From Candidatus Zixiibacteriota bacterium (lineage in GTDB: Bacteria; Zixibacteria; MSB-5A5; GN15; FEB-12), in NCBI GenBank assembly GCA_024276275.1, contig JAJRXM010000015.1:18868-82867 (forward strand): a stretch of 64,000 nt of DNA, written 5' to 3'. Numbering within the stretch: position 1 is the first letter of the stretch; every line of letters begins with the position of its first letter. This document shows, piece by piece, positions 2,304 to 11,277 of the stretch. The position numbers were made by a program, and so were the translations under genes. The notes below the pieces were generated by a model. That model was given only the letters and a program-made list of their open reading frames with translations. It was not told where the DNA came from and did no database searches.

Positions 2304-3062
2304 TTAATATAACAGAGCGTATGTCAATAAGTTCAGACCCATTTGAAAAGATTCCAGCCGTTTTTCTTCGGGGTCATTATGCACGACTCCGTCTTCCCAA
2401 CCGTCACCGATATCCGACTCGACCAAAAAGTAAACAACTGCCTTCCCATTAACTATAACGGCATATCCGCGGGGAGATTTATTATCATGCTCATGAATTT
2501 TCGGAGGACCGTTCGGGAAATCATAAAATGAATGATACAAGGGATGACTAAAGGGAAGTTCAACTATTTCTCTTTCAGGGAATATCTTTGCCATCTCTTT
2601 TAAAAATGTTTTTTCCATACCATAAGAATCATTGACGAATAAAAATCCGCCGCTCGAAAGATACAAACGAAGCCGTTCGATTTCATCCGCTTCAAATGAA
2701 ATCAGTCCGTGACCGGTAGCAAATAAAAACGGATATTTGAAAAGTTCGGGGTCGTTTATAGATATTTCATATTCAATTGTATCTATAAGAATATCTGAAT
2801 TTTCAGAGGCAAAACTGAGCATATTCGGTATAGCTGACCGTCCCCAATACCAGTCTCCCCCACCTGAATAATGCAGACGGGCTATTTTAACTGCCGACGG
2901 GTTCCTGAGTTCTTTAACCTGATTCCTTTGAGGCAGCTGCCTCATAAGATCATTTATTTGGTTTCTCTGAGCTAACAGATTGCCGGTAAACGAGATAACA
3001 ATTAGAACCGTCAGAATAGATATAGCTATAACTTTGAAATAGTTCATACATATAATATACAC
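2304..3062 (-). CDS. DUF4159 domain protein (secreted/periplasmic)
   Basis: 252-aa ORF with an N-terminal signal/TM segment. The pattern IARLHYSGGGDWYW...DPELFKYPFLFATGHG...E..RLRLYLSSGGFLFVND...FPEREIVELPFSHPLYHSFYDF matches the conserved DUF4159 layout as I recall it. A likely true start is MNYFKV (3047). Confidence 0.65.
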   Translation of the reverse strand: MYIICMNYFKVIAISILTVLIVISFTGNLLAQRNQINDLMRQLPQRNQVKELRNPSAVKIARLHYSGGGDWYWGRSAIPNMLSFASENSDILIDTIEYEISINDPELFKYPFLFATGHGLISFEADEIERLRLYLSSGGFLFVNDSYGMEKTFLKEMAKIFPEREIVELPFSHPLYHSFYDFPNGPPKIHEHDNKSPRGYAVIVNGKAVVYFLVESDIGDGWEDGVVHNDPEEKRLESFQMGLNLLTYALLY

Positions 3063-3121
3063 ATAAACTAAGATATGTGATGAAAAAACTTGAGTTATTT
3101 TGTAGGATAATTAATTGTAGC

Positions 3122-3179
3122 GACAGGGCATTGCCCTGTCTTGTTAGTAGAGGCGTTTTATAAAAACGCCTCTACTAAC
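3122..3179 (-). terminator. Two adjacent perfect hairpins downstream of 3187..4086
   Basis: gacagggca/tgccctgtc (3122-3140) and gttagtagaggcgtttt-ata-aaaacgcctctactaac (3143-3179) lie 8 nt after the stop of the upstream minus-strand gene. The flank is AU-rich but there is no clean U-tract. Confidence 0.45.
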
Positions 3180-3186
3180 ATTTTTA

Positions 3187-4086
3187 CTATGGTTTGATTA
3201 CCAAAGTATCCACTCTGTTAAAACCTCTTACCGACGGAGTGTCAGACGGAAAAACTAATAAAAGTGTTTCACCGGGAATTAACTCTACTTTCTTTTTATA
3301 TTCTGAAATGTAGGTAATATCCGCCGTAAATTCTTTTTCGGATGATATAAGTGTGTCAACTTTGTAAATCCTTTTAAAAATAAGTTCTGTTAACATCGCA
3401 GTTTCTAATTTCTCGGGATAATTTGGAAGCAGGATTTCTGTTAGCAAGCTTACTTTTTCATAGTAACCATCATCACGTTTTTTCCCTATGCTTGTATGAA
3501 ACACTGTTTGTTCAGAAATAGCCCCATTGGTATTTCTATTCATACTCGCATATTTCCCGTCAATAATAGTTCTTGTCCGAAGTGAGATAGGACCGTTAAA
3601 CTTGTAAACAGAAATTGGTTTTTCTTTTACAAGCATTATATTTATACCGACTTCTTTAGCATCTTCAGATGGTTTTACTCTTAGTTTAATTTCTTTATTA
3701 TAAAAAATATCCTGATATATCACATTACGCGAACCAGATACTATCGTGGAACCTTCTAATTTATAAGCTCGAAGAATTCCGCTGAGTAATATCCTATCCG
3801 GAAATTTAGTTAGACGTAGATAACACGGCATTTCAAAAAAGACTTCATCCTCATCGGCATAACTACCGTCGGAAATTCCGACACCGATTTCGTCAGTTTT
3901 ATAATATACCCGATACATAGAGTTATCTTCACCACAGTTCCAATGACTAGAACCGACTATATACTCTAAACCGTTTTCGTCAATATCTATATAGTCTATT
4001 TTCATATACGAACCTTCAAAATCAGCTTTCACTGTTGTACTGATTGTAAAAATCAGCACACCTATAAGCAATAGTTTTTGTAACAT
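3187..4086 (-). CDS. Hypothetical secreted protein, third gene of the ECF sigma operon
   Basis: 299-aa ORF with a signal peptide (MLQKLLLIGVLIFTISTTVKA). It starts 14 nt after the anti-sigma stop. I recognise no family. Confidence 0.6.
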   Translation of the reverse strand: MLQKLLLIGVLIFTISTTVKADFEGSYMKIDYIDIDENGLEYIVGSSHWNCGEDNSMYRVYYKTDEIGVGISDGSYADEDEVFFEMPCYLRLTKFPDRILLSGILRAYKLEGSTIVSGSRNVIYQDIFYNKEIKLRVKPSEDAKEVGINIMLVKEKPISVYKFNGPISLRTRTIIDGKYASMNRNTNGAISEQTVFHTSIGKKRDDGYYEKVSLLTEILLPNYPEKLETAMLTELIFKRIYKVDTLISSEKEFTADITYISEYKKKVELIPGETLLLVFPSDTPSVRGFNRVDTLVIKP

Positions 4087-4100
4087 ATTATCCTCTTGTA

Positions 4101-4520
4101 TTATTCAATTGATTTAACAAGCACTGCAGGTTGAGGAGAGAATTTGACAAACTGAACATTTTGATAGTCTGTTTGTTTTTGCTCTACCTCTATTATCTGT
4201 GGCTCTGCTTGATTATGATTTCCGGTTAACCAAAACGATCCTATCAGAAAAACTAAGACTGCCGCGGCCGCAGGCAGTGGAATTGAAATTTTGGTTTGCC
4301 AGATTTTTCTAAAAATATTTTGATTAGTTTTTTCTTCTACCTCAAAATCTATTGTCGGTAACTTCTGTAATTGAGTTGACTGCTTCAGGAGTATTTGATA
4401 AAATTCTGTACAGCCTGAACAATCCGTAACATGTATTTTTAACTCTTCTACGGAATTTATATCTGCTCCGTCGTCATGGATACTTGATATCATCTGTTGG
4501 TAGTATTCACAATTTTTCAT
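4101..4520 (-). CDS. Anti-sigma factor, zf-HC2 type, single TM
   Basis: 139 aa with an N-terminal H-x3-C-x2-C motif (HVTDCSGCTEF) and one TM helix (IPLPAAAAVLVFLIGSFWL). It starts 3 nt after the sigma-factor stop. Confidence 0.6.
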   Translation of the reverse strand: MKNCEYYQQMISSIHDDGADINSVEELKIHVTDCSGCTEFYQILLKQSTQLQKLPTIDFEVEEKTNQNIFRKIWQTKISIPLPAAAAVLVFLIGSFWLTGNHNQAEPQIIEVEQKQTDYQNVQFVKFSPQPAVLVKSIE

Positions 4521-4523
4521 AAT

Positions 4524-4964
4524 CTATTCCTTTGCTAATACCTGCATTTTTTTTCTAATTCTAAATAACCGCACTCGGACCGCTTCTTCAGATAGTTTTA
4601 ACATTGCAGCAATCTCTTTAACTGGATATCCTTGCTGTTCACGAAGAAGAATAAGTTCCCGTTCGGCAGGTTCAAGTTTTCCTAAAATCTGCCGTATAAA
4701 TATTTTTTGTTCAACCGTAACAGAATCAGATTGGTCTATCGGTATATATTGTATTGGTTTCTTTTTCAAATAATTGTAAATAAGATTTCTTGAACAGATA
4801 AACAGCCAATCTTTCACAGAAAGGATTTCTTGTTTCTGTTTTTTTTGAATTGCAAATTTTAGAAATACTTCATGGACAATATCTTCACTCAATTGTTTGT
4901 CACCGGTCAGATAAAGTGAAAATTGAAAGATACTATCTTTATACTGTTTATATGCCTGTTCCAA
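4524..4964 (-). CDS. ECF-type RNA polymerase sigma-70 family factor
   Basis: 146 aa with a region 2 signature (SEDIVHEVFLKF) and a region 4 HTH (GYPVKEIAAMLKLSEEAVRVRLFRIRKKM). Confidence 0.8.
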   Translation of the reverse strand: MEQAYKQYKDSIFQFSLYLTGDKQLSEDIVHEVFLKFAIQKKQKQEILSVKDWLFICSRNLIYNYLKKKPIQYIPIDQSDSVTVEQKIFIRQILGKLEPAERELILLREQQGYPVKEIAAMLKLSEEAVRVRLFRIRKKMQVLAKE

Positions 4965-5066
4965 TGATTATAAATCTCCATTGTAGGAATCTTAAACTCA
5001 ATTAAACTGATATTTACAATAAAGACAATGAGAGAGTTGTTTTGTTACAAGAAAATATAAGCAAAA

Positions 5067-5438
5067 CTAAAAAATTTTATCTAAATATTCTTCAATAGGC
5101 AAATCGGTATCATCTTCTTTTTCTGTTATATTTTTATGAAGCCAATCATAGTCAATATTACTTATAATAGCTGCTCTTTTGGTGGAATACGGACAAATCT
5201 CAACTATAAGATACTATTCTACATGCCATAAGATTTTCATCGTTAGACAAAAGCTTTGTACACCTTGAGCGTAGCAAGCGTTATGAAAATTAAGTTCTAT
5301 TATATTTTCTTCTCTTACTTGAAACCCATAAATTTTTATTGGAGAAAAATAAGGACCCCGTCCATACCCCGGTAGCATTTGCCATGAGTACCATTTATTT
5401 GTTTCTAATTTGAGTTTATTTTCAGCTTTTGCATCCAA
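5067..5438 (-). CDS. Small orphan protein; the 74-aa ORF (5214..5438) continues in frame past a TAG for 48 more codons
   Basis: ORF-track protein MDAKAENK...ILWHVE ends at the TAG at 5214-5216. The same frame then reads YLIVEICPYSTKRAAIISNIDYDWLHKNITEKEDDTDLPIEEYLDKIF before a TAG at 5067-5069. It is the last gene of the AT-rich cassette, starting 22 nt after the upstream gene stop. I recognise no family. Confidence 0.35.
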
Positions 5439-5460
5439 ATTATCAAACCCTCATTTTTAG

Positions 5461-6384
5461 TTACATATTTATAATATTTTCCAATGTATACATATTGCTT
5501 TCATACAACCCGTAACCATGAAATTTTGCTTGAGAAAATAGAACATTGAAATCAACATTTATTTCCTGACATTTTAATAACTCTTTCTGAAGCTTTGTAT
5601 CAGTTGGCTTGTGATTAGCAAGAACAAACAAGACATCAACTTTTTCATCTAATTTTGTAATCTTATACGAATTACTATTAAGAGCTGGAACTAAGCCTAA
5701 ATCTCTTTTTTGTTGAAATTGTTTGATGACTTCTTTTTTGAGTTCTTTGATTATATTTTCATCTTTAACAAATATTTTATTTTGTTTAAAATGATCTAAC
5801 ATGCCTGCTTCTCCAATCAAAGCAGAATCCCCATATTTCATTTCAATTAAAGTTAAGCGAGGTTTATACTTTTTTGAAAGTTTTCGTGCGGAAGCAGTAG
5901 AGTGCCACCGTATTGCCAATGCATCAAAGCGGGCTCCTTGTCTATTATCATATTCAATATCAGAGATAAAATAATCTGTACCGTGAGCAACCCCTTTGTT
6001 ACCGTTATTATCATATACCAATATTTGTTGAAATGCACGTTCATCTTTCGGATGTTTTCCAAACCAAAGATCCATCCCATTTTTCAAATAACCAATATTT
6101 CTAACCCAACATTCGGTCTCAAATTTTGTACTTATTGTTGTTGGTAAATCAACTTCTCTTTCACCGGTTCCTTTAAAATAATTAAAGTCAAATTTTGCAT
6201 TATAACTATGTTTTGTTTTCCCCTTTGGTTCTAATCTTAATATACTCCCACCTCTATAGTAAATATTAAAGTAGTTCTCTCTTATTTCTAAATCCAATGT
6301 TGAATCAAGAATTACTCTTTCTAAGAGTGGATTTAAAAACCCCTCCATTAATTCTTTTTCAAAGTAATTGTTAAGTATTCGCAT
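5461..6384 (-). CDS. Hypothetical protein with a PD-(D/E)xK-like nuclease motif arrangement
   Basis: 307-aa ORF. Its only recognisable feature is the ordered E...D...ExK pattern: KDERAFQQILV / GARFDALAIRW / RLTLIEMKYG. It is tightly linked (12-nt spacer) to the MBL nuclease gene. Confidence 0.45.
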   Translation of the reverse strand: MRILNNYFEKELMEGFLNPLLERVILDSTLDLEIRENYFNIYYRGGSILRLEPKGKTKHSYNAKFDFNYFKGTGEREVDLPTTISTKFETECWVRNIGYLKNGMDLWFGKHPKDERAFQQILVYDNNGNKGVAHGTDYFISDIEYDNRQGARFDALAIRWHSTASARKLSKKYKPRLTLIEMKYGDSALIGEAGMLDHFKQNKIFVKDENIIKELKKEVIKQFQQKRDLGLVPALNSNSYKITKLDEKVDVLFVLANHKPTDTKLQKELLKCQEINVDFNVLFSQAKFHGYGLYESNMYTLENIINM

Positions 6385-6396
6385 AAATCTCCTGTT

Positions 6397-7710
6397 TTAT
6401 TTTAAAGTTATTGAATTACCATTTTGTAAAATTTTTGTTTTAGAATATTCTTTCTCAAACCACTTTGGCATTATTGTATGAATAGGTATCAGATTACGAG
6501 GTTGCAATGTTTTTATTGTATCTCTTATTGTATTCGCATCGGCATGCCCGCTGGTATGAAGAACTATTTCTTTTGTACCTTTTTCTTTCAGCCAACTAAG
6601 AAATCGTAAACTTTTCTCGTCATCACGATAACCATCCCACATAGAATAAAAAAGAACAGAATTTTCTAATGAAAGTTGATTAAGAAAATCTCTTACCGAC
6701 GGTCTCACTATCATAAAATACTTAGAAGGATTATCTTGAATTTCTTCTTTTGTGATTTTCCATTTTTGAAATTCATATAATGCTTTTTTGCTTGACTGTT
6801 TTACTAAATAAGAACTGAATCTGCTTGAAAAATAAACTTTTACATCTGAAAATTTTTTTGATGGATACGGAATGACATTTGACTGCCCTGCTATCTTTAG
6901 CATATGAGCAGTATATGGGTCGACAACAAAAGTCCTTCCTGTCCTCTTAGCTGTTCGGTAGGCAGTAACTAATCTATCTATATTTTGTGAGCTTGTCCAA
7001 ATCATGGCTAACCCACCATTATTTGAAATTTCTTTCACGGCTTGTTCTTCCAAATCCTTTTCAGTTATTGGTGTTTCGTCAGCTCTTGACAATGTTGTAC
7101 CTTCTATAATCAGTACGTCTAATGGTTGCTTTACTTTCTTTAATGTTTTATCCCACAACTTTTCTTTCCGACCATGTTGCCTAAAATCTCCAGTATAGAA
7201 AATATTTCTGTTTTTGTCCGTTAGTTCAAAAGCAGATGCTTCAAAAGCAGAGTGGTCAACCAAATGAGGCATAACTTCTAAATCTCCAACAATAAACTTA
7301 CTACCCGGACTAAAGAACTTAACTCTATCTTCTTGAATTTTAGGTCGTCCAAGTAATTCTGCTGATTTATTTATCAACTTCAGAGAAACCTTAGAAAAAT
7401 AAATTTTGATTTTCGGTTTTAACCATTGTACAATTCCCCAGTGATCAGGGTGTGAATGAGAAATAAGTACCGCATCTATTGTATTAGGGCGTTTGTCCCA
7501 AATATAAATACCCGGAATATCTGTAAATTCTGAGCTTTCAATTAATTCTTTTCCCTGCTCATACGTAATATCTTTGGGTAAGGGAATTTCAAAAATATTA
7601 GAATCTAATGACAAGCCTAAATCAAGAAGAATTTTTGTATCAGAACTTTGTAATTCAATACAACTCCCTCCTATTTGATTATGCCCTCTATGCATTGTGC
7701 ATGTAATCAT
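6397..7710 (-). CDS. MBL-fold metallo-hydrolase, beta-CASP-type nuclease
   Basis: 437 aa with LLDLG (motif 1), VLISHSHPDHWG (HxHxDH), a later His/Asp (VDHSAFE, YTGDFRQHG) and the C-terminal VLHTSGHADANT...LIPIHT signature typical of the RNase J / CPSF / SNM1 beta-CASP family. Confidence 0.75.
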   Translation of the reverse strand: MITCTMHRGHNQIGGSCIELQSSDTKILLDLGLSLDSNIFEIPLPKDITYEQGKELIESSEFTDIPGIYIWDKRPNTIDAVLISHSHPDHWGIVQWLKPKIKIYFSKVSLKLINKSAELLGRPKIQEDRVKFFSPGSKFIVGDLEVMPHLVDHSAFEASAFELTDKNRNIFYTGDFRQHGRKEKLWDKTLKKVKQPLDVLIIEGTTLSRADETPITEKDLEEQAVKEISNNGGLAMIWTSSQNIDRLVTAYRTAKRTGRTFVVDPYTAHMLKIAGQSNVIPYPSKKFSDVKVYFSSRFSSYLVKQSSKKALYEFQKWKITKEEIQDNPSKYFMIVRPSVRDFLNQLSLENSVLFYSMWDGYRDDEKSLRFLSWLKEKGTKEIVLHTSGHADANTIRDTIKTLQPRNLIPIHTIMPKWFEKEYSKTKILQNGNSITLK

Positions 7711-7953
7711 CTATAATGATACCTTATTTACTATTTTGTCCAAACTAAAAAACCTTTTGTTAAACCAACGCCTGATTATATAGCTTCTGATTATTGAAAT
7801 TATTGTAAACCATAAACCGATAAGAAAATTTTCAGATAATGTTATATTAATATTAAATATTGGAAATATGATAAGCTGGCTTACTATAGCTACACCATAA
7901 CCTATAGCAACATTTATGAGAGATTCTATAAAGCTGTTTTGCTTAGTTTGCAT
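7711..7953 (-). CDS. Small two-TM membrane protein, first gene of the cassette
   Basis: 80 aa with two hydrophobic helices (INVAIGYGVAIVSQLIIFPIF; FLIGLWFTIISIIRSYII) followed by a basic RRWFNKR. Its stop codon abuts the ATG of the MBL gene (7711/7710). It resembles small phage/prophage membrane proteins, by recollection only. Confidence 0.5.
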   Translation of the reverse strand: MQTKQNSFIESLINVAIGYGVAIVSQLIIFPIFNINITLSENFLIGLWFTIISIIRSYIIRRWFNKRFFSLDKIVNKVSL

Positions 7954-8138
7954 TCATTTCTCCTTCTCAATTATTTTATTAGTGTACTCTTTTACAGAAT
8001 ACTTATATCTTATAAAATGAATAATACAACAGCCTACTGACAAAGGATGTCAGTTTAATTTCTGAAACCACAATTTTACTACACAACCTCACCACTTTCA
8101 TATCACACCGCATACTATGAACAACTTAATTTTAGAAC

Positions 8139-8527
8139 AAAACAACAATGTTGGATCCCGTATCAAGTACGGGATGACATTTTGGTGTCGGGGATGACAT
8201 TTGAGGTGCTTACTTCGACCCCGCTTAGGTGGACAGCATGACTTATTATACAGGGATTTTTCGATGCACAAAATTACTACAAAAAATATTAACAAAAATG
8301 GCTTTAAGCCATTTTTTAAGGCAAAGCCATTTCCCCGTAAGGGTCTAAGACCCTTTTGTTTATAGCGATAAAACAGGTTAGAAATAGCATAAAAAAAGAT
8401 GTTTTATATGTGACTGAAGCCATTTTAAAACAACAATGTTGGATCCCAAATCAAGTGTGGGATAACAAAAAAGGCAGAACCGATAAAAGATTCTGCCTTT
8501 GGATTCCCAACCAAGTCAGGAATGACA
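8139..8527. repeat. Cluster of short GC-rich hairpin repeats (TGGATYCC-N9-11-GGRATRACA family)
   Basis: Copies: 8151-8179 ttggatcccgtatcaagtacgggatgaca; 8439-8467 ttggatcccaaatcaagtgtgggataaca; 8499-8527 ttggattcccaaccaagtcaggaatgaca. There is a half-site at 8186-8199. A 21-nt leader, aaaacaacaatgttggatccc, is identical at 8139-8159 and 8427-8447. Another copy lies at 43069-43096. Confidence 0.7.
8467..8499 (-). terminator. Rho-independent terminator candidate for secDF
   Basis: 9-bp stem aaggcagaa/ttctgcctt (8471-8479 / 8491-8499). On the minus strand it is followed by a T6 run (A-run 8467-8472), about 90 nt downstream of the secF stop. Confidence 0.45.
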
Positions 8528-8589
8528 TTATATTATGATGTCCTCAGATTTATGAAAAATTATTCAGACAATAAAAAAGCCATTTAGCT

Positions 8590-9516
8590 TTATTTAAAAC
8601 GTTTTGGTGAACGGGATTCCCATTCGACCACAATTGGCGATGCGACAAAAATTGAACTATACGTTCCAACTACAACACCCAAAATAAGTGCCAATGAAAA
8701 GTTCCGTAATACATCACCACCGAACAAGAAAATTGAACCTACTACAAAAATAACAGTAATAGATGTATTAAATGTACGAGCTAAAACTTCATTGATAGAT
8801 GAGTTAACACAATTTGCAAATTCACCTCTGGTACGGAATTTTTTCAAATTTTCCCGAATACGGTCGAAAACAACCACCGTATCAGTCAATGAATATCCCG
8901 CAAGTGTCAGAAGTGCCGTAACAGTCAACATGTCAAATTCCAAACCTAAAAGCCAGAATATACCCATCACCGCAAGGACATCATGGAATGTCGCGATAGT
9001 CGCAGCAATCCCAGACCTGAAATCAAAACGAATCCAAATATAAACGATGATACCAAAAAGTGAGAGCAAAACAGCAAACTGTGCATCTTTGCGGAGAGTT
9101 TCTCCAACAGCAGGTCCGATTTGATGAGTTTCTACTTTTACAAAAGAATTAGTAGGAAATTTCTCGTCAATTATTTTTTCAAGTGTTGCAAGTTGCATTC
9201 GACTTTCTTCTTCAGTTCCGGGACTTTTAGTTTTGATAATAAAGGCATTATCCTTTTCAAAGCCTGTCAAAATCGTAATAGAAATATCTTCAAACTCTGT
9301 ACCAAGTACAGAACGAAGGTCCTCGATAGCAACCGGTTGTTCAAAGTACCCTTTGATCATCACTCCACCGGCAAAATCAATTCCTAAATTTGCTTTTCCT
9401 GTTGCAATCATAGTAAATCCGACAGCACCAAGGACTATTAAAGCCAATGAAACGATAAAGGCGATTTTGCGAACGCCGATAAAGTTTATATTGGTATCTG
9501 GTATTATTCTAAACAT
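8590..9516 (-). CDS. secF: Protein translocase subunit SecF
   Basis: 308 aa with the typical SecF layout: an N-terminal TM, a periplasmic loop, then five TM helices with LTLAGYSLTDTVVVFDRIREN. It is immediately downstream of secD. Confidence 0.9.
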   Translation of the reverse strand: MFRIIPDTNINFIGVRKIAFIVSLALIVLGAVGFTMIATGKANLGIDFAGGVMIKGYFEQPVAIEDLRSVLGTEFEDISITILTGFEKDNAFIIKTKSPGTEEESRMQLATLEKIIDEKFPTNSFVKVETHQIGPAVGETLRKDAQFAVLLSLFGIIVYIWIRFDFRSGIAATIATFHDVLAVMGIFWLLGLEFDMLTVTALLTLAGYSLTDTVVVFDRIRENLKKFRTRGEFANCVNSSINEVLARTFNTSITVIFVVGSIFLFGGDVLRNFSLALILGVVVGTYSSIFVASPIVVEWESRSPKRFK

Positions 9517-9534
9517 TATTATAAACCCTTTCCA

Positions 9535-11277
9535 TTATATGCTGAGTTTTTGATAGCCTTTGCGGATATCAAAAATCTGTTTGGTAATTACGTATGCGGT
9601 ATAGAGTGAGATTAACACACCCCAGAACAATGTAACCGCAAACCCTTTAATAGGTCCGGATCCTAACAAGAATAATGCTCCGGCAGTAATCAATGTTGTA
9701 ATATGAGAGTCTATAATTGCAACAAATGCCCGTTCATATCCGGCATCAATAGAAGCCCGTACTGTTTTTCCTGTACGTAATTCTTCTCGTATCCTTTCAA
9801 AAATAAGGATATTTGAGTCAATAGAAATACCTATCGTTAATATAATACCTGCAATACCCGGCATAGTCAAAGTAGCACCAAGGGCCGCTAAGACAGACAT
9901 AAGGAAAAAGATATTAAATATAAGACCAACATCAGCAATCACACCGGAAACACGATAGTAGATAGCAATATATAAAAGCACTATCAGTAAACCGACTACT
10001 GAAGCAAAGAAACCTTTTCTAATAGAGTCAGCCCCTAAAGAAGCACCGACAATATTTTTTTCTATGATTTCAACCGGTACAGGTAATGCACCTGCTTTTA
10101 AAACGATTTCCATGTTACGGGCATCTTCCATCGAAGCTGATGAGCCCATAGTAATCTGACCACTTCCTCTTATTTTAGAAGAAATCATCGGAGCAGACTC
10201 TACTCTGTCATCTAATACAATCGCAAGAGGTTTATTTATATTTACTCCGGTAAGTTGTGCAAATCGTGCCGACCCGTCACCGGATAATTTAAAGTTTACA
10301 ACAGATTTGCCATAAGAGTCACGGGATAGAGCTATATTTTCCAGAAGTTTTCCGATAAACTGTACTTTTCTTTTCATAAGATAGAGATAATATACTTCTC
10401 TATTATTGCGAAGTTCAAAACGAGTCGACCAGGCAAAAACAACATCAATCGGCATAAGTCTTTTTACTTCAGGAAGGTTCAGCCACTTATCAACAAGTTC
10501 TTTATCTTTTTTGTTTACCGCAAATCCCGGCCAACTGATACCTGTAGTAGAGTTATAGAGAGCAATTTCTAATCTTGATGATAACGGACGGTCATTTAGT
10601 GAAAGGTCTGTTGATTCATCAAAAGCAAATTCATCGGCTACTCCAGAATCTCCCATTAAATCAGCAAGGATATCATCATCAGATATTTCTTCAGTTGCAT
10701 TATTAGTTTCAGCAACTTCGTCAGTTTCTACTATATCTGCATTATTTTCTGCTTCTTTTTCTTTATTAGCATTTTCTTTTTCAAACACAATCGAATCAAT
10801 TTTTGAAATCAAAAGATTAGCATTTTCAGCAGATTCAAGAAGTTTAAAAGTAAGTTGAGCAGTCTGACCGATAAGCTCTTCAGCACGTTCGGCATCGGTA
10901 TAGCCCGGTAAATCAACCAATATACGGTCTTCACCCTGCTTAACAATTACCGGTTCAGCGACACCAAGACCATCAATACGAGTTCTGATAACTTGAATTG
11001 CTTGTTCGACATCATCTGCTTTAGCGGCAGCATCTTTACCTTCGTTATGTACTTTCAAGACGACATGAATTCCGCCCTGTAAATCTAATCCAAGACGGAT
11101 AGCTTTCTGTTGCATCTGAAGCAAAGCACCCGGATCTTTTTCCTGAAGAGCAGCTTTATCGGCATCGCTCATCGTCCACAGTGAGAACGTTCCCCAAAAT
11201 GCGTAACAGGCTGCCAAAAATAAAACCGCAGTCACAATGACACGCCAATTGTTTTTGGACATATTATTTCCTTTCAA
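9535..11277 (-). CDS. secD: Protein translocase subunit SecD (with an acidic low-complexity insertion)
   Basis: 580 aa with conserved LGLDLQGGIHVVL, a RIDGLGVAEPVI-like region and a C-terminal SecD TM bundle (GIAGIILTIGISIDSNILIFERIREE). There is a D/E-rich insertion at about aa 165-235. Confidence 0.9.
   Translation of the reverse strand: MKGNNMSKNNWRVIVTAVLFLAACYAFWGTFSLWTMSDADKAALQEKDPGALLQMQQKAIRLGLDLQGGIHVVLKVHNEGKDAAAKADDVEQAIQVIRTRIDGLGVAEPVIVKQGEDRILVDLPGYTDAERAEELIGQTAQLTFKLLESAENANLLISKIDSIVFEKENANKEKEAENNADIVETDEVAETNNATEEISDDDILADLMGDSGVADEFAFDESTDLSLNDRPLSSRLEIALYNSTTGISWPGFAVNKKDKELVDKWLNLPEVKRLMPIDVVFAWSTRFELRNNREVYYLYLMKRKVQFIGKLLENIALSRDSYGKSVVNFKLSGDGSARFAQLTGVNINKPLAIVLDDRVESAPMISSKIRGSGQITMGSSASMEDARNMEIVLKAGALPVPVEIIEKNIVGASLGADSIRKGFFASVVGLLIVLLYIAIYYRVSGVIADVGLIFNIFFLMSVLAALGATLTMPGIAGIILTIGISIDSNILIFERIREELRTGKTVRASIDAGYERAFVAIIDSHITTLITAGALFLLGSGPIKGFAVTLFWGVLISLYTAYVITKQIFDIRKGYQKLSI

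Follow-up and report, generated by a model that had tools for sequence, protein, structure and literature searches.

A metallo-beta-lactamase of the beta-CASP branch and a PD-(D/E)xK-like protein encoded as a recurrent gene pair: a candidate nuclease defence module from Zixibacteria and other phyla

Closest described systems and the locus

Nucleases of the metallo-beta-lactamase (MBL) fold are known as defence effectors beside an activating partner, e.g., in the nuclease-protease modules of HamM (in HamMAB), Avs1, Lamassu and canu, where ComEC-like DNases lacking a beta-CASP domain exist as proenzymes and depend on a fused trypsin-like protease for activation (Science 2025, PMC12799240). Here we analyzed a four-gene cassette at positions 5067-7953 of a 64,000-nt stretch of DNA from Candidatus Zixiibacteriota bacterium (GCA_024276275.1, contig JAJRXM010000015.1, positions 18,868 to 82,867; the whole stretch is referred to as the window). 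The cassette encodes an MBL protein of 437 amino acids (aa) and a 307-aa protein (designated here pd307) with a predicted PD-(D/E)xK-like core, besides a small membrane protein and a short orphan. We propose, with modest confidence, that the locus represents a horizontally mobile two-gene nuclease module that is most likely an uncharacterised anti-phage or anti-mobile-element defence system. In contrast to HamM and Avs1, there is no protease domain in the cassette, its MBL protein is RNase J-like, and PADLOC revealed no Avs1 match.

A precedent for a beta-CASP nuclease as an immune effector is Cas14 of type VII CRISPR systems. However, the match of the cassette to Cas14 is confined to a 24-residue HxHxDH stretch (NF045584, E = 0.0028, 16 bits vs 800), and neither Cas5/Cas7 nor a CRISPR array goes with it. 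Hachiman (the DUF1837 nuclease HamA plus the superfamily-2 helicase HamB) and Shedu resemble the cassette as compact modules of defence islands with a divergent PD-(D/E)xK effector. Among the weak structural matches of pd307, no other defence proteins were present, the similarity being not significant. Unlike in Hachiman, no helicase is present in the operon of the window or among the conserved neighbours in 57 loci, and the partner is a second nuclease; the PADLOC models for HamA, HamB and Shedu found no match in the cassette, which cannot be assigned to Hachiman. Type II and type IV restriction endonucleases share the PD-(D/E)xK-type core with pd307, and orphan pd307 homologues occur together with an N6/N4 methylase (L037; numbers of this kind denote the compared loci) or after a type I hsdR gene (L057). 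Nevertheless, no methylase adjoins the pd307-MBL pair, either in the window or next to the pairs whose adjacent genes were examined, and the obligatory partner is the MBL nuclease. The locus is not a restriction-modification (R-M) system: apart from L037, no methyltransferase was found among the open reading frames (ORFs) examined in the window (2304-11277) or among the recurrent adjacent families.

The initial annotation had recognised no named system in the cassette, and searches of PADLOC v2, Pfam, NCBIfam and the literature gave the same answer. In the PADLOC-DB v2.0.0 scan no system model was matched, and three of the four cassette proteins remained without any match. We regard the module as a compact nuclease defence candidate that combines genes in a new way and includes a protein family without annotation.

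The conserved pair of predicted nucleases

The four genes are co-directional on the minus strand, separated by 0, 12 and 22 nt; positions and spacers given in the initial annotation agree with the ORF listing. Conservation, in contrast, is limited to two of them. Searches of 185,579 species genomes produced 262 matches to pd307, from which 80 species-level genome loci were taken as the sample for gene linkage. An MBL homologue is encoded within 10 kb of the pd307 homologue in 63 of these 80 genomes, and in 57 the two are same-strand neighbours (pd307 first in 38 cases, MBL first in 19), with representatives in more than 15 phyla. The gaps range mostly from -35 to +26 nt, i.e., the genes usually overlap or abut, and the same pairing was found in seven out of seven further metagenome contexts. 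The hosts of pd307 include Zixibacteria, Planctomycetota, Bacteroidota, Ignavibacteria, Omnitrophota, Peribacteria, Dojkabacteria, Actinomycetes, Myxococcota, Desulfobacterota, Firmicutes, Chloroflexi, Nitrospinota and others, members of the Candidate Phyla Radiation (CPR) among them, and the distribution is patchy (~0.14% of species genomes). Thus the expected co-occurrence of homologues was seen for pd307 and MBL, in variable regions rich in defence and mobile-element genes. The small membrane protein (DUF7220, see below) and the orphan occur with the pair in L001/L008 and L088/L089 alone, all close Zixibacteria relatives with 68-84% identity; about five Zixibacteria-type contigs show this association in all. 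Both genes are restricted to these relatives, and 78 of the 80 other genome loci lack them. The four-gene unit was therefore rejected as a conserved module; what is conserved is the pair of pd307 and MBL, which has been elaborated into the four-gene form in one lineage.

The 437-aa protein contains the sequences HSHPDHWG and HTSGHAD...IPIHT, which had led to its designation as a beta-CASP nuclease. Pfam, AlphaFold2 (AF2) and Foldseek comparisons and alignments all confirm this fold, with every catalytic motif kept. Pfam identified Lactamase_B_2 (E = 1.7e-12) and RMMBL (E = 8.3e-6), and the search of PDB sequences retrieved EF2904 (2az4) at E = 3.6e-20, improving to 1.4e-40 when the family profile was used, with RNase J entries next in rank. 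To our knowledge, the structure of EF2904 has been solved without a function having been assigned to it. With the AF2 model (pLDDT 91.9), the best Foldseek match was again 2az4 (E = 3e-28, TM 0.77-0.80), then RNase J (TM 0.66-0.74), aCPSF, CPSF73 and IntS11, and all of the top 50 matches were beta-CASP enzymes. In 36 family members H85, H87, D89, H153, D175, E203, H385, S387, G388, H389 and H411 are invariant, and D30 and H90 nearly so (at least 90%). These residues comprise MBL motifs 1-4 (H85-x-H87-x-D89, H153 and D175, aligning to HAHEDH, HS and GDF of RNase J) and the invariant beta-CASP motifs A, B and C (E203, H385-T-S-G-H389-A and P409-x-H411). The two-domain MBL plus beta-CASP fold, with HxHxDH, the histidine of motif 3, the aspartate of motif 4, HxSGHA and PxH all alignable, is therefore shared with EF2904 and RNase J. 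Histidine at motif C is the RNA-type state of beta-CASP enzymes, and the relatives of the protein are 5'-monophosphate-dependent 5'->3' exonucleases, as established for RNase J.

However, the protein is not RNase J proper, since it scores far below the family cut-offs (TIGR00649, 66.4 bits vs 400; NF047419, 46.5 vs 820) and the C-terminal dimerisation domain is missing, the protein having 437 aa (~435 aa in the family) instead of ~555 aa. Furthermore, its gene shares an operon with that of a PD-(D/E)xK-like protein and lies in variable islands, in contrast to the conserved housekeeping gene for RNase J. We predict that it acts as a 5'->3' exo/endonuclease. Note that the NCBI record gives a product of 432 aa starting at Met6. 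The sole PADLOC match among the four cassette proteins was a weak BrxA-like one in residues 157-236 of the MBL protein (E = 7.6e-4, 17.7 bits; Pfam BrxA, E = 0.021), which is probably due to chance and was treated as such.

The partner, pd307, has no match in Pfam, NCBIfam, PADLOC or PHROGs, including the restriction endonuclease family models of Pfam and NCBIfam. It belongs to a family with 832 relatives (90% clusters) in 5.8e9 proteins, or 1,063 clusters at 50% identity. The motifs DERAFQ, RFDALAI and LIEMKYG, on which the suggestion of a PD-(D/E)xK nuclease was originally based, are all present in the translation. The alignment of 34 sequences (41-74% identity) revealed E115, R116, D142, E144, D154, E181, K183, H198 and H258 among the invariant residues, with E115, D154, E181 and K183 identical in every sequence. 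In the AF2 model (pLDDT 92), helix 114-128 carries E115 and is followed by three strands (138-146, 152-159 and 176-184) with D142/E144, D154 and E181-x-K183, respectively, then by a long helix (195-228) and a fourth strand (249-256). This alpha-beta-beta-beta-alpha-beta core, as judged from the predicted topology without inspection of coordinates, has the canonical PD-(D/E)xK order. Foldseek found weak matches to Shedu (8ti9, E = 0.28) and HamA (8vxy, E = 0.37), and one family member matches PDDEXK_9 at E = 0.004; the alignment profile searched against PDB sequences produced a chance match alone. No informative additional Pfam domain was detected in the longer relatives (385-616 aa), apart from HTH_8 in one of them. 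The original suggestion therefore stands as far as the invariant E/D/ExK residues on a predicted core are concerned, and the assignment as a nuclease is based on motifs, predicted topology and weak structural and profile matches. The protein is predicted to be an endonuclease or a nucleic-acid sensor.

Insertion site and accessory genes in the window

The cassette has a G+C content of 31.3%, compared to 37.7 ± 2.0% in 1,051 windows of the same size from the rest of the 64 kb, none of which is as low (minimum 32.5%). At third codon positions the G+C content of the cassette is 22-26%, while secD, secF and the DUF4159 gene have 27-36%. The cassette is thus compositionally distinct from the rest of the window, in line with its interpretation as an accessory insertion. 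The initial annotation was right about the direction of this difference, although its spot values (23-30% vs 42-43%) overstate the contrast. Moreover, the sigma-factor gene, considered there as a high-G+C flank, has a G+C content of 32.4% and is part of the same low-G+C block. This block is not limited to the cassette but extends over 3063-8589 (32.3% vs 37.8 ± 1.5% for windows of equal size) and includes an extracytoplasmic function (ECF) sigma gene with its putative anti-sigma partner and a 299-aa gene. The features of the locus are listed in Table 1.

Table 1. Features of the cassette and its surroundings in the window (TM, transmembrane).
Feature	Coordinates	Strand	Remarks
DUF7220 two-TM protein, 80 aa	7711..7953	-	stop abuts MBL start codon
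beta-CASP MBL nuclease (predicted), 437 aa	6397..7710	-	EF2904/RNase J type; core gene
pd307, 307 aa	5461..6384	-	unannotated family, predicted PD-(D/E)xK-like core; core gene
Fourth gene, 124-aa orphan	5067..5438	-	TAG at 5214-5216, giving 74 aa + 48 codons
74-aa ORF part of the fourth gene	5438-5214	-	TTG start
Non-coding spacer between secF and cassette, 636 nt	7954..8589	.	repeats and hairpins
Low-G+C variable region between secF and DUF4159 gene	3063..8589	-	cassette, ECF sigma gene, gene in anti-sigma position, 299-aa gene
ECF sigma gene	4524-4964		within 3063-8589; identity from family match
Gene in anti-sigma position	4101-4520		function deduced from its location; family searches gave no significant match
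299-aa gene	3187-4086		within 3063-8589
DUF4159 homologue	2304-3062		identity from family match

A metagenome search with the SecF protein of the window showed how variable this site is. Thirteen related metagenome loci have 87-282 nt between secF and the start of the DUF4159 homologue, whereas in the window the two genes are 5.5 kb apart; other secF loci contain unrelated inserts of 0.8-3.4 kb or altogether different genes at this place. Since relatives have the DUF4159 gene directly after secF, positions 3063-8589 represent a 5.5-kb variable insertion, and the secF-DUF4159 interval (flanked in the window by 2304-3062 and 8590-11277) behaves as an insertion hot spot. In related Zixibacteria-type contigs (L097, L106, L111, L112, L124, L129 and others) the order is secD-secF, the DUF4159 gene and a gene for a protein of ~1,136 aa. 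The ECF sigma, anti-sigma-position and 299-aa genes (3187-4964) have a low G+C content (32-35%) and no post-secF homologue in the relatives; they are probably accessory as well. The complete four-gene cassette is located beside secDF in the window and in L088 and L089, which come from two other metagenomes, and beside gyrB/DciA in L001, another Zixibacteria metagenome-assembled genome (MAG). As the cassette is found next to secDF and, elsewhere, next to gyrB/DciA, it must have moved as a unit. The initial annotation reported no adjacent methyltransferase, integrase or transposase, and indeed none is encoded by the ORFs examined in 2304-11277.

The non-coding region on the right side of the cassette is somewhat longer than described before (636 nt instead of ~590 nt), and the hairpins ascribed to it are real, with four terminator-like structures compared to 1.6 expected. 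It contains three copies of a 41-nt direct repeat (8139-8527; at 8139, 8427 and 8487 with 100, 88 and 61% identity, respectively). The 16-nt core of this repeat, which does not match the third, diverged copy, has no further copy in the window. Promoter-like sites are present on the minus strand of the spacer, and searches for Rfam matches, tRNA genes and dispersed repeats were negative for it. The spacer is likely the promoter and boundary region of the cassette.

The 80-aa protein was described as having two transmembrane segments, and hydropathy analysis places them at about residues 11-35 and 42-61. The protein belongs to DUF7220 (PF23858; E = 5.3e-29, 100.8 bits vs a gathering cut-off of 28) and matches phrog_4276 at E = 2.8e-26. 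The DUF7220 gene is a lineage-specific accessory of phage origin.

The fourth gene has no match in Pfam, NCBIfam, PADLOC or PHROGs and belongs to a family of just five members in 5.8e9 proteins, four of which are intact at 123-124 aa. It had been interpreted as a complete 74-aa orphan; actually, it is a 124-aa gene with a nonsense codon in the window. The reading frame continues beyond the TAG for 48 codons, as noted initially; three relatives have GAA (Glu) at codon 75, where the window has TAG (5214-5216), and the region beyond it is still ~65% identical to the relatives. Because the 48 downstream codons are still conserved, the TAG must either have arisen recently as a nonsense mutation or be an error of the assembly. 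The annotation at NCBI covers only the 74-aa part. In the Zixibacteria-type lineage the pair has gained two operon genes, i.e., the phage-derived DUF7220 gene abutting MBL and the 124-aa orphan, which the stop codon would have inactivated in the window.

Possible function of the pair

The genomic neighbourhood of the pair outside the window was studied with PADLOC and Pfam scans of 238 ORFs located within 4.5 kb of 31 pairs. PADLOC identified BrxA/B/C (E = 0), PsyrT/PsyrA, DpdF, SngA, SIR2 (E = 9e-155), REase_I, two MTase_II, MkoA/MkoC (Mokosh), ShosA, DrmD and five PDC candidates. Pfam added transposases, integrases, MobA, bpMoxR-VWA and STAND NTPases; transposases of the rve (four), Mutator (two) and IS21 types and tyrosine and serine recombinases are among the neighbours. 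In an uncultured member of the Desulfobacterales (L056, 5600-12939) the pair is located 321 nt upstream of brxA-brxB-brxC; BrxA matches 3bhw and 7zge, and BrxC matches 9zdx (E = 0). A WYL-WCX regulator directly precedes the pair in L260, with an IS21 element downstream, and in L254 the pair is flanked by Schlafen/AlbA_2 genes, GIY-YIG genes and a serine recombinase gene. Orphan pd307 homologues have similar company: besides the DNA methylase and the HsdR mentioned above (the latter with Schlafen), REase-ARP (L038/62/67/71) and a STAND-TPR ATPase (L075) are encoded next to them.

This context makes a defence function plausible. Of the earlier proposal of a candidate undescribed defence module, the lack of a named counterpart and the defence-rich surroundings hold, whereas the unit comprises two genes instead of four and the defence role itself is deduced from context. 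For the reaction sequence we can offer a scheme, in which our confidence is lower than in the defence role. In the first step, pd307 would recognise and endonucleolytically cut invading nucleic acid, or any nucleic acid once activated. PD-(D/E)xK enzymes leave 5'-phosphate ends. In the second step, the beta-CASP enzyme, which keeps the RNase J motifs including HxSGHA at motif B and histidine at motif C, could enter at these 5'-phosphate ends and degrade the strand in the 5'->3' direction. As to the substrate, the histidine at motif C and the RNase relatives speak for RNA, and the orphan pd307 genes, with their methylase and R-M partners, speak for DNA. The WYL and helix-turn-helix (HTH) regulators and the small membrane proteins may suggest a controlled or membrane-associated activation, which is speculation.

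Several observations weigh against a defence system. Many neighbours of the pair are ordinary housekeeping or metabolic genes, and the enrichment of defence genes near it is qualitative, because it lacks a matched background control. In the window itself no known defence gene adjoins the cassette. The close structural relatives of the MBL protein are housekeeping RNases without exception, and the coupling of endo- and exonucleolytic steps is deduced from family properties only. A component for self/non-self discrimination is not evident, with no methylase among the ORFs examined in 2304-11277. The pair matches none of the 5,027 PADLOC models, and a limited open-access search (for beta-CASP, RNase J or MBL in anti-phage context, DUF7220 and 2AZ4) found no publication describing it.

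Alternatively, an RNase J paralogue and an endonuclease could form an accessory housekeeping or repair pair for the decay of RNA or the processing of DNA ends, involved in RNA turnover, stress response or repair. Every significant relative of the MBL protein is indeed an RNA-processing enzyme (RNase J, aCPSF, CPSF73, IntS11), its motif C is in the RNA-type state, several contexts (L004, L257) have flanks of housekeeping genes only, and genes for an AddB-like PDDEXK_1 protein and HU are found near the pair in L257. We nevertheless consider this explanation improbable. The distribution is extremely patchy (~0.14% of species genomes); the Pfam scan of neighbours detected no conserved synteny with any housekeeping gene, and the pair recurs beside BREX, R-M, Mokosh, SIR2, WYL regulators and transposases. 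The insertion polymorphism and low G+C content at the window locus, the score for TIGR00649 and the missing C-terminal domain of RNase J argue in the same direction.

The cassette could also be carried as cargo by a mobile element or prophage, or be what is left of one, and serve the element (in exclusion of competing elements, addiction or anti-defence nucleic-acid processing) rather than the host. The DUF7220 gene is common in phages, with at least 117 relatives in IMG/VR viral contigs at up to 70% identity, the cassette has a low G+C content and sits at an insertion site, its fourth gene is already decaying, and transposases, tyrosine and serine recombinases and MobA belong to the neighbours listed above. 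However, relatives of pd307 are almost absent from mobile-element collections, with 2 in 2.9 million viral contigs and none in 50,697 phage records or 72,556 plasmid records, and a phage or plasmid origin of pd307 was rejected on these grounds. In addition, no phage structural gene, integrase or att-like tRNA was found near the cassette in the window, and DUF7220 of viral contigs is never located beside MBL or pd307. We therefore regard element-serving cargo as unlikely. In viral contigs (L174-L253) the DUF7220 gene is usually found beside, or fused with, an ORF with an SPPY-type DNA-methylase motif, near a small-terminase-like gene.

Rai1/Dxo1 prepare 5'-monophosphate RNA. By analogy, pd307 could mainly be the sensor or 5'-end processor of an abortive-infection or RNA-targeting system in which RNA of both cell and phage would be degraded 5'->3' by the RNase J-like enzyme and growth would be arrested, as the RNase J-type motifs, the match to the RMMBL "RNA specificity" domain, the weak Foldseek match of pd307 to Dxo1 among PD-(D/E)xK folds (4gps, E = 1.9) and the association of the pair with small membrane proteins and with HTH/WYL regulators in several clades, also seen in many abortive systems, might suggest. 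However, the similarity to Dxo1 is not significant, orphan pd307 homologues pair with DNA methylase and R-M genes, pointing to DNA, and we find this variant the least credible one.

If the pair is a defence system, as we propose, it would be a compact two-gene, nuclease-only system present in more than 15 phyla, with many hosts being uncultured (Zixibacteria, Omnitrophota, CPR) and poorly covered by current defence catalogues. It would provide a function for a protein family of ~1,000 clusters without a Pfam entry and a role for the structurally solved, functionless EF2904-type beta-CASP proteins. Furthermore, it would represent a second, independent route of MBL nucleases into immunity, apart from the protease-gated ComEC-like MBLs, and a case of an RNase J/CPSF-type enzyme serving as an effector in bacteria outside CRISPR. 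Otherwise, a PD-(D/E)xK protein and an RNase J paralogue that are tightly coupled across phyla would still define an unknown nucleic-acid processing pathway.

More tentatively, the pair may belong to a widespread and undescribed two-nuclease immune family, in which pd307 would make or process 5' ends for the RNase J-like exonuclease, the beta-CASP enzyme would be constant and its PD-(D/E)xK partners interchangeable, and small two-TM proteins, recruited independently in at least three clades, would couple the nucleases to the membrane, e.g., at the site of phage DNA entry; we hold this extended version to be possible but doubtful. MBL homologues with 37-38% identity are paired with other small D...ExK proteins instead of pd307, namely with 'RFDIVG..FEMK' in L172 (5249-5989) and 'IDLWG..IELK' in L173 (193-891), so that the constant partner may be the beta-CASP enzyme. 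The hhalign comparisons of pd307 with these alternative partners cover the D/ExK motifs only (E = 0.015-0.095) and are suggestive of homology rather than a proof of it. In L072 (11231-13998), two such D...ExK paralogues are encoded between pd307 and the MBL gene.

The operons of other clades have their own additional genes. In Bacteroidota and Ignavibacteria (L006, 5272-5991; L017, L022, L026), an unrelated 239-aa two-TM protein is encoded directly upstream of pd307. The variant of Firmicutes and related bacteria (L044, 10001-14070; L063, L066) consists of pd307, a Zn-ribbon two-TM protein (121-124 aa), an HTH_11 regulator (~200 aa), MBL and an RNase_T-like exonuclease of 333 aa, i.e., three predicted nucleases in one operon; L032 and L034 possess the HTH regulator alone from this accessory set. 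Together with DUF7220, three different kinds of small membrane proteins are thus associated with the pair. In a small CPR genome, a Peribacteria MAG (CAYXLW01; L013 and L014), two copies of the pair are located on separate contigs, each followed by a gene for a protein of ~110 aa.

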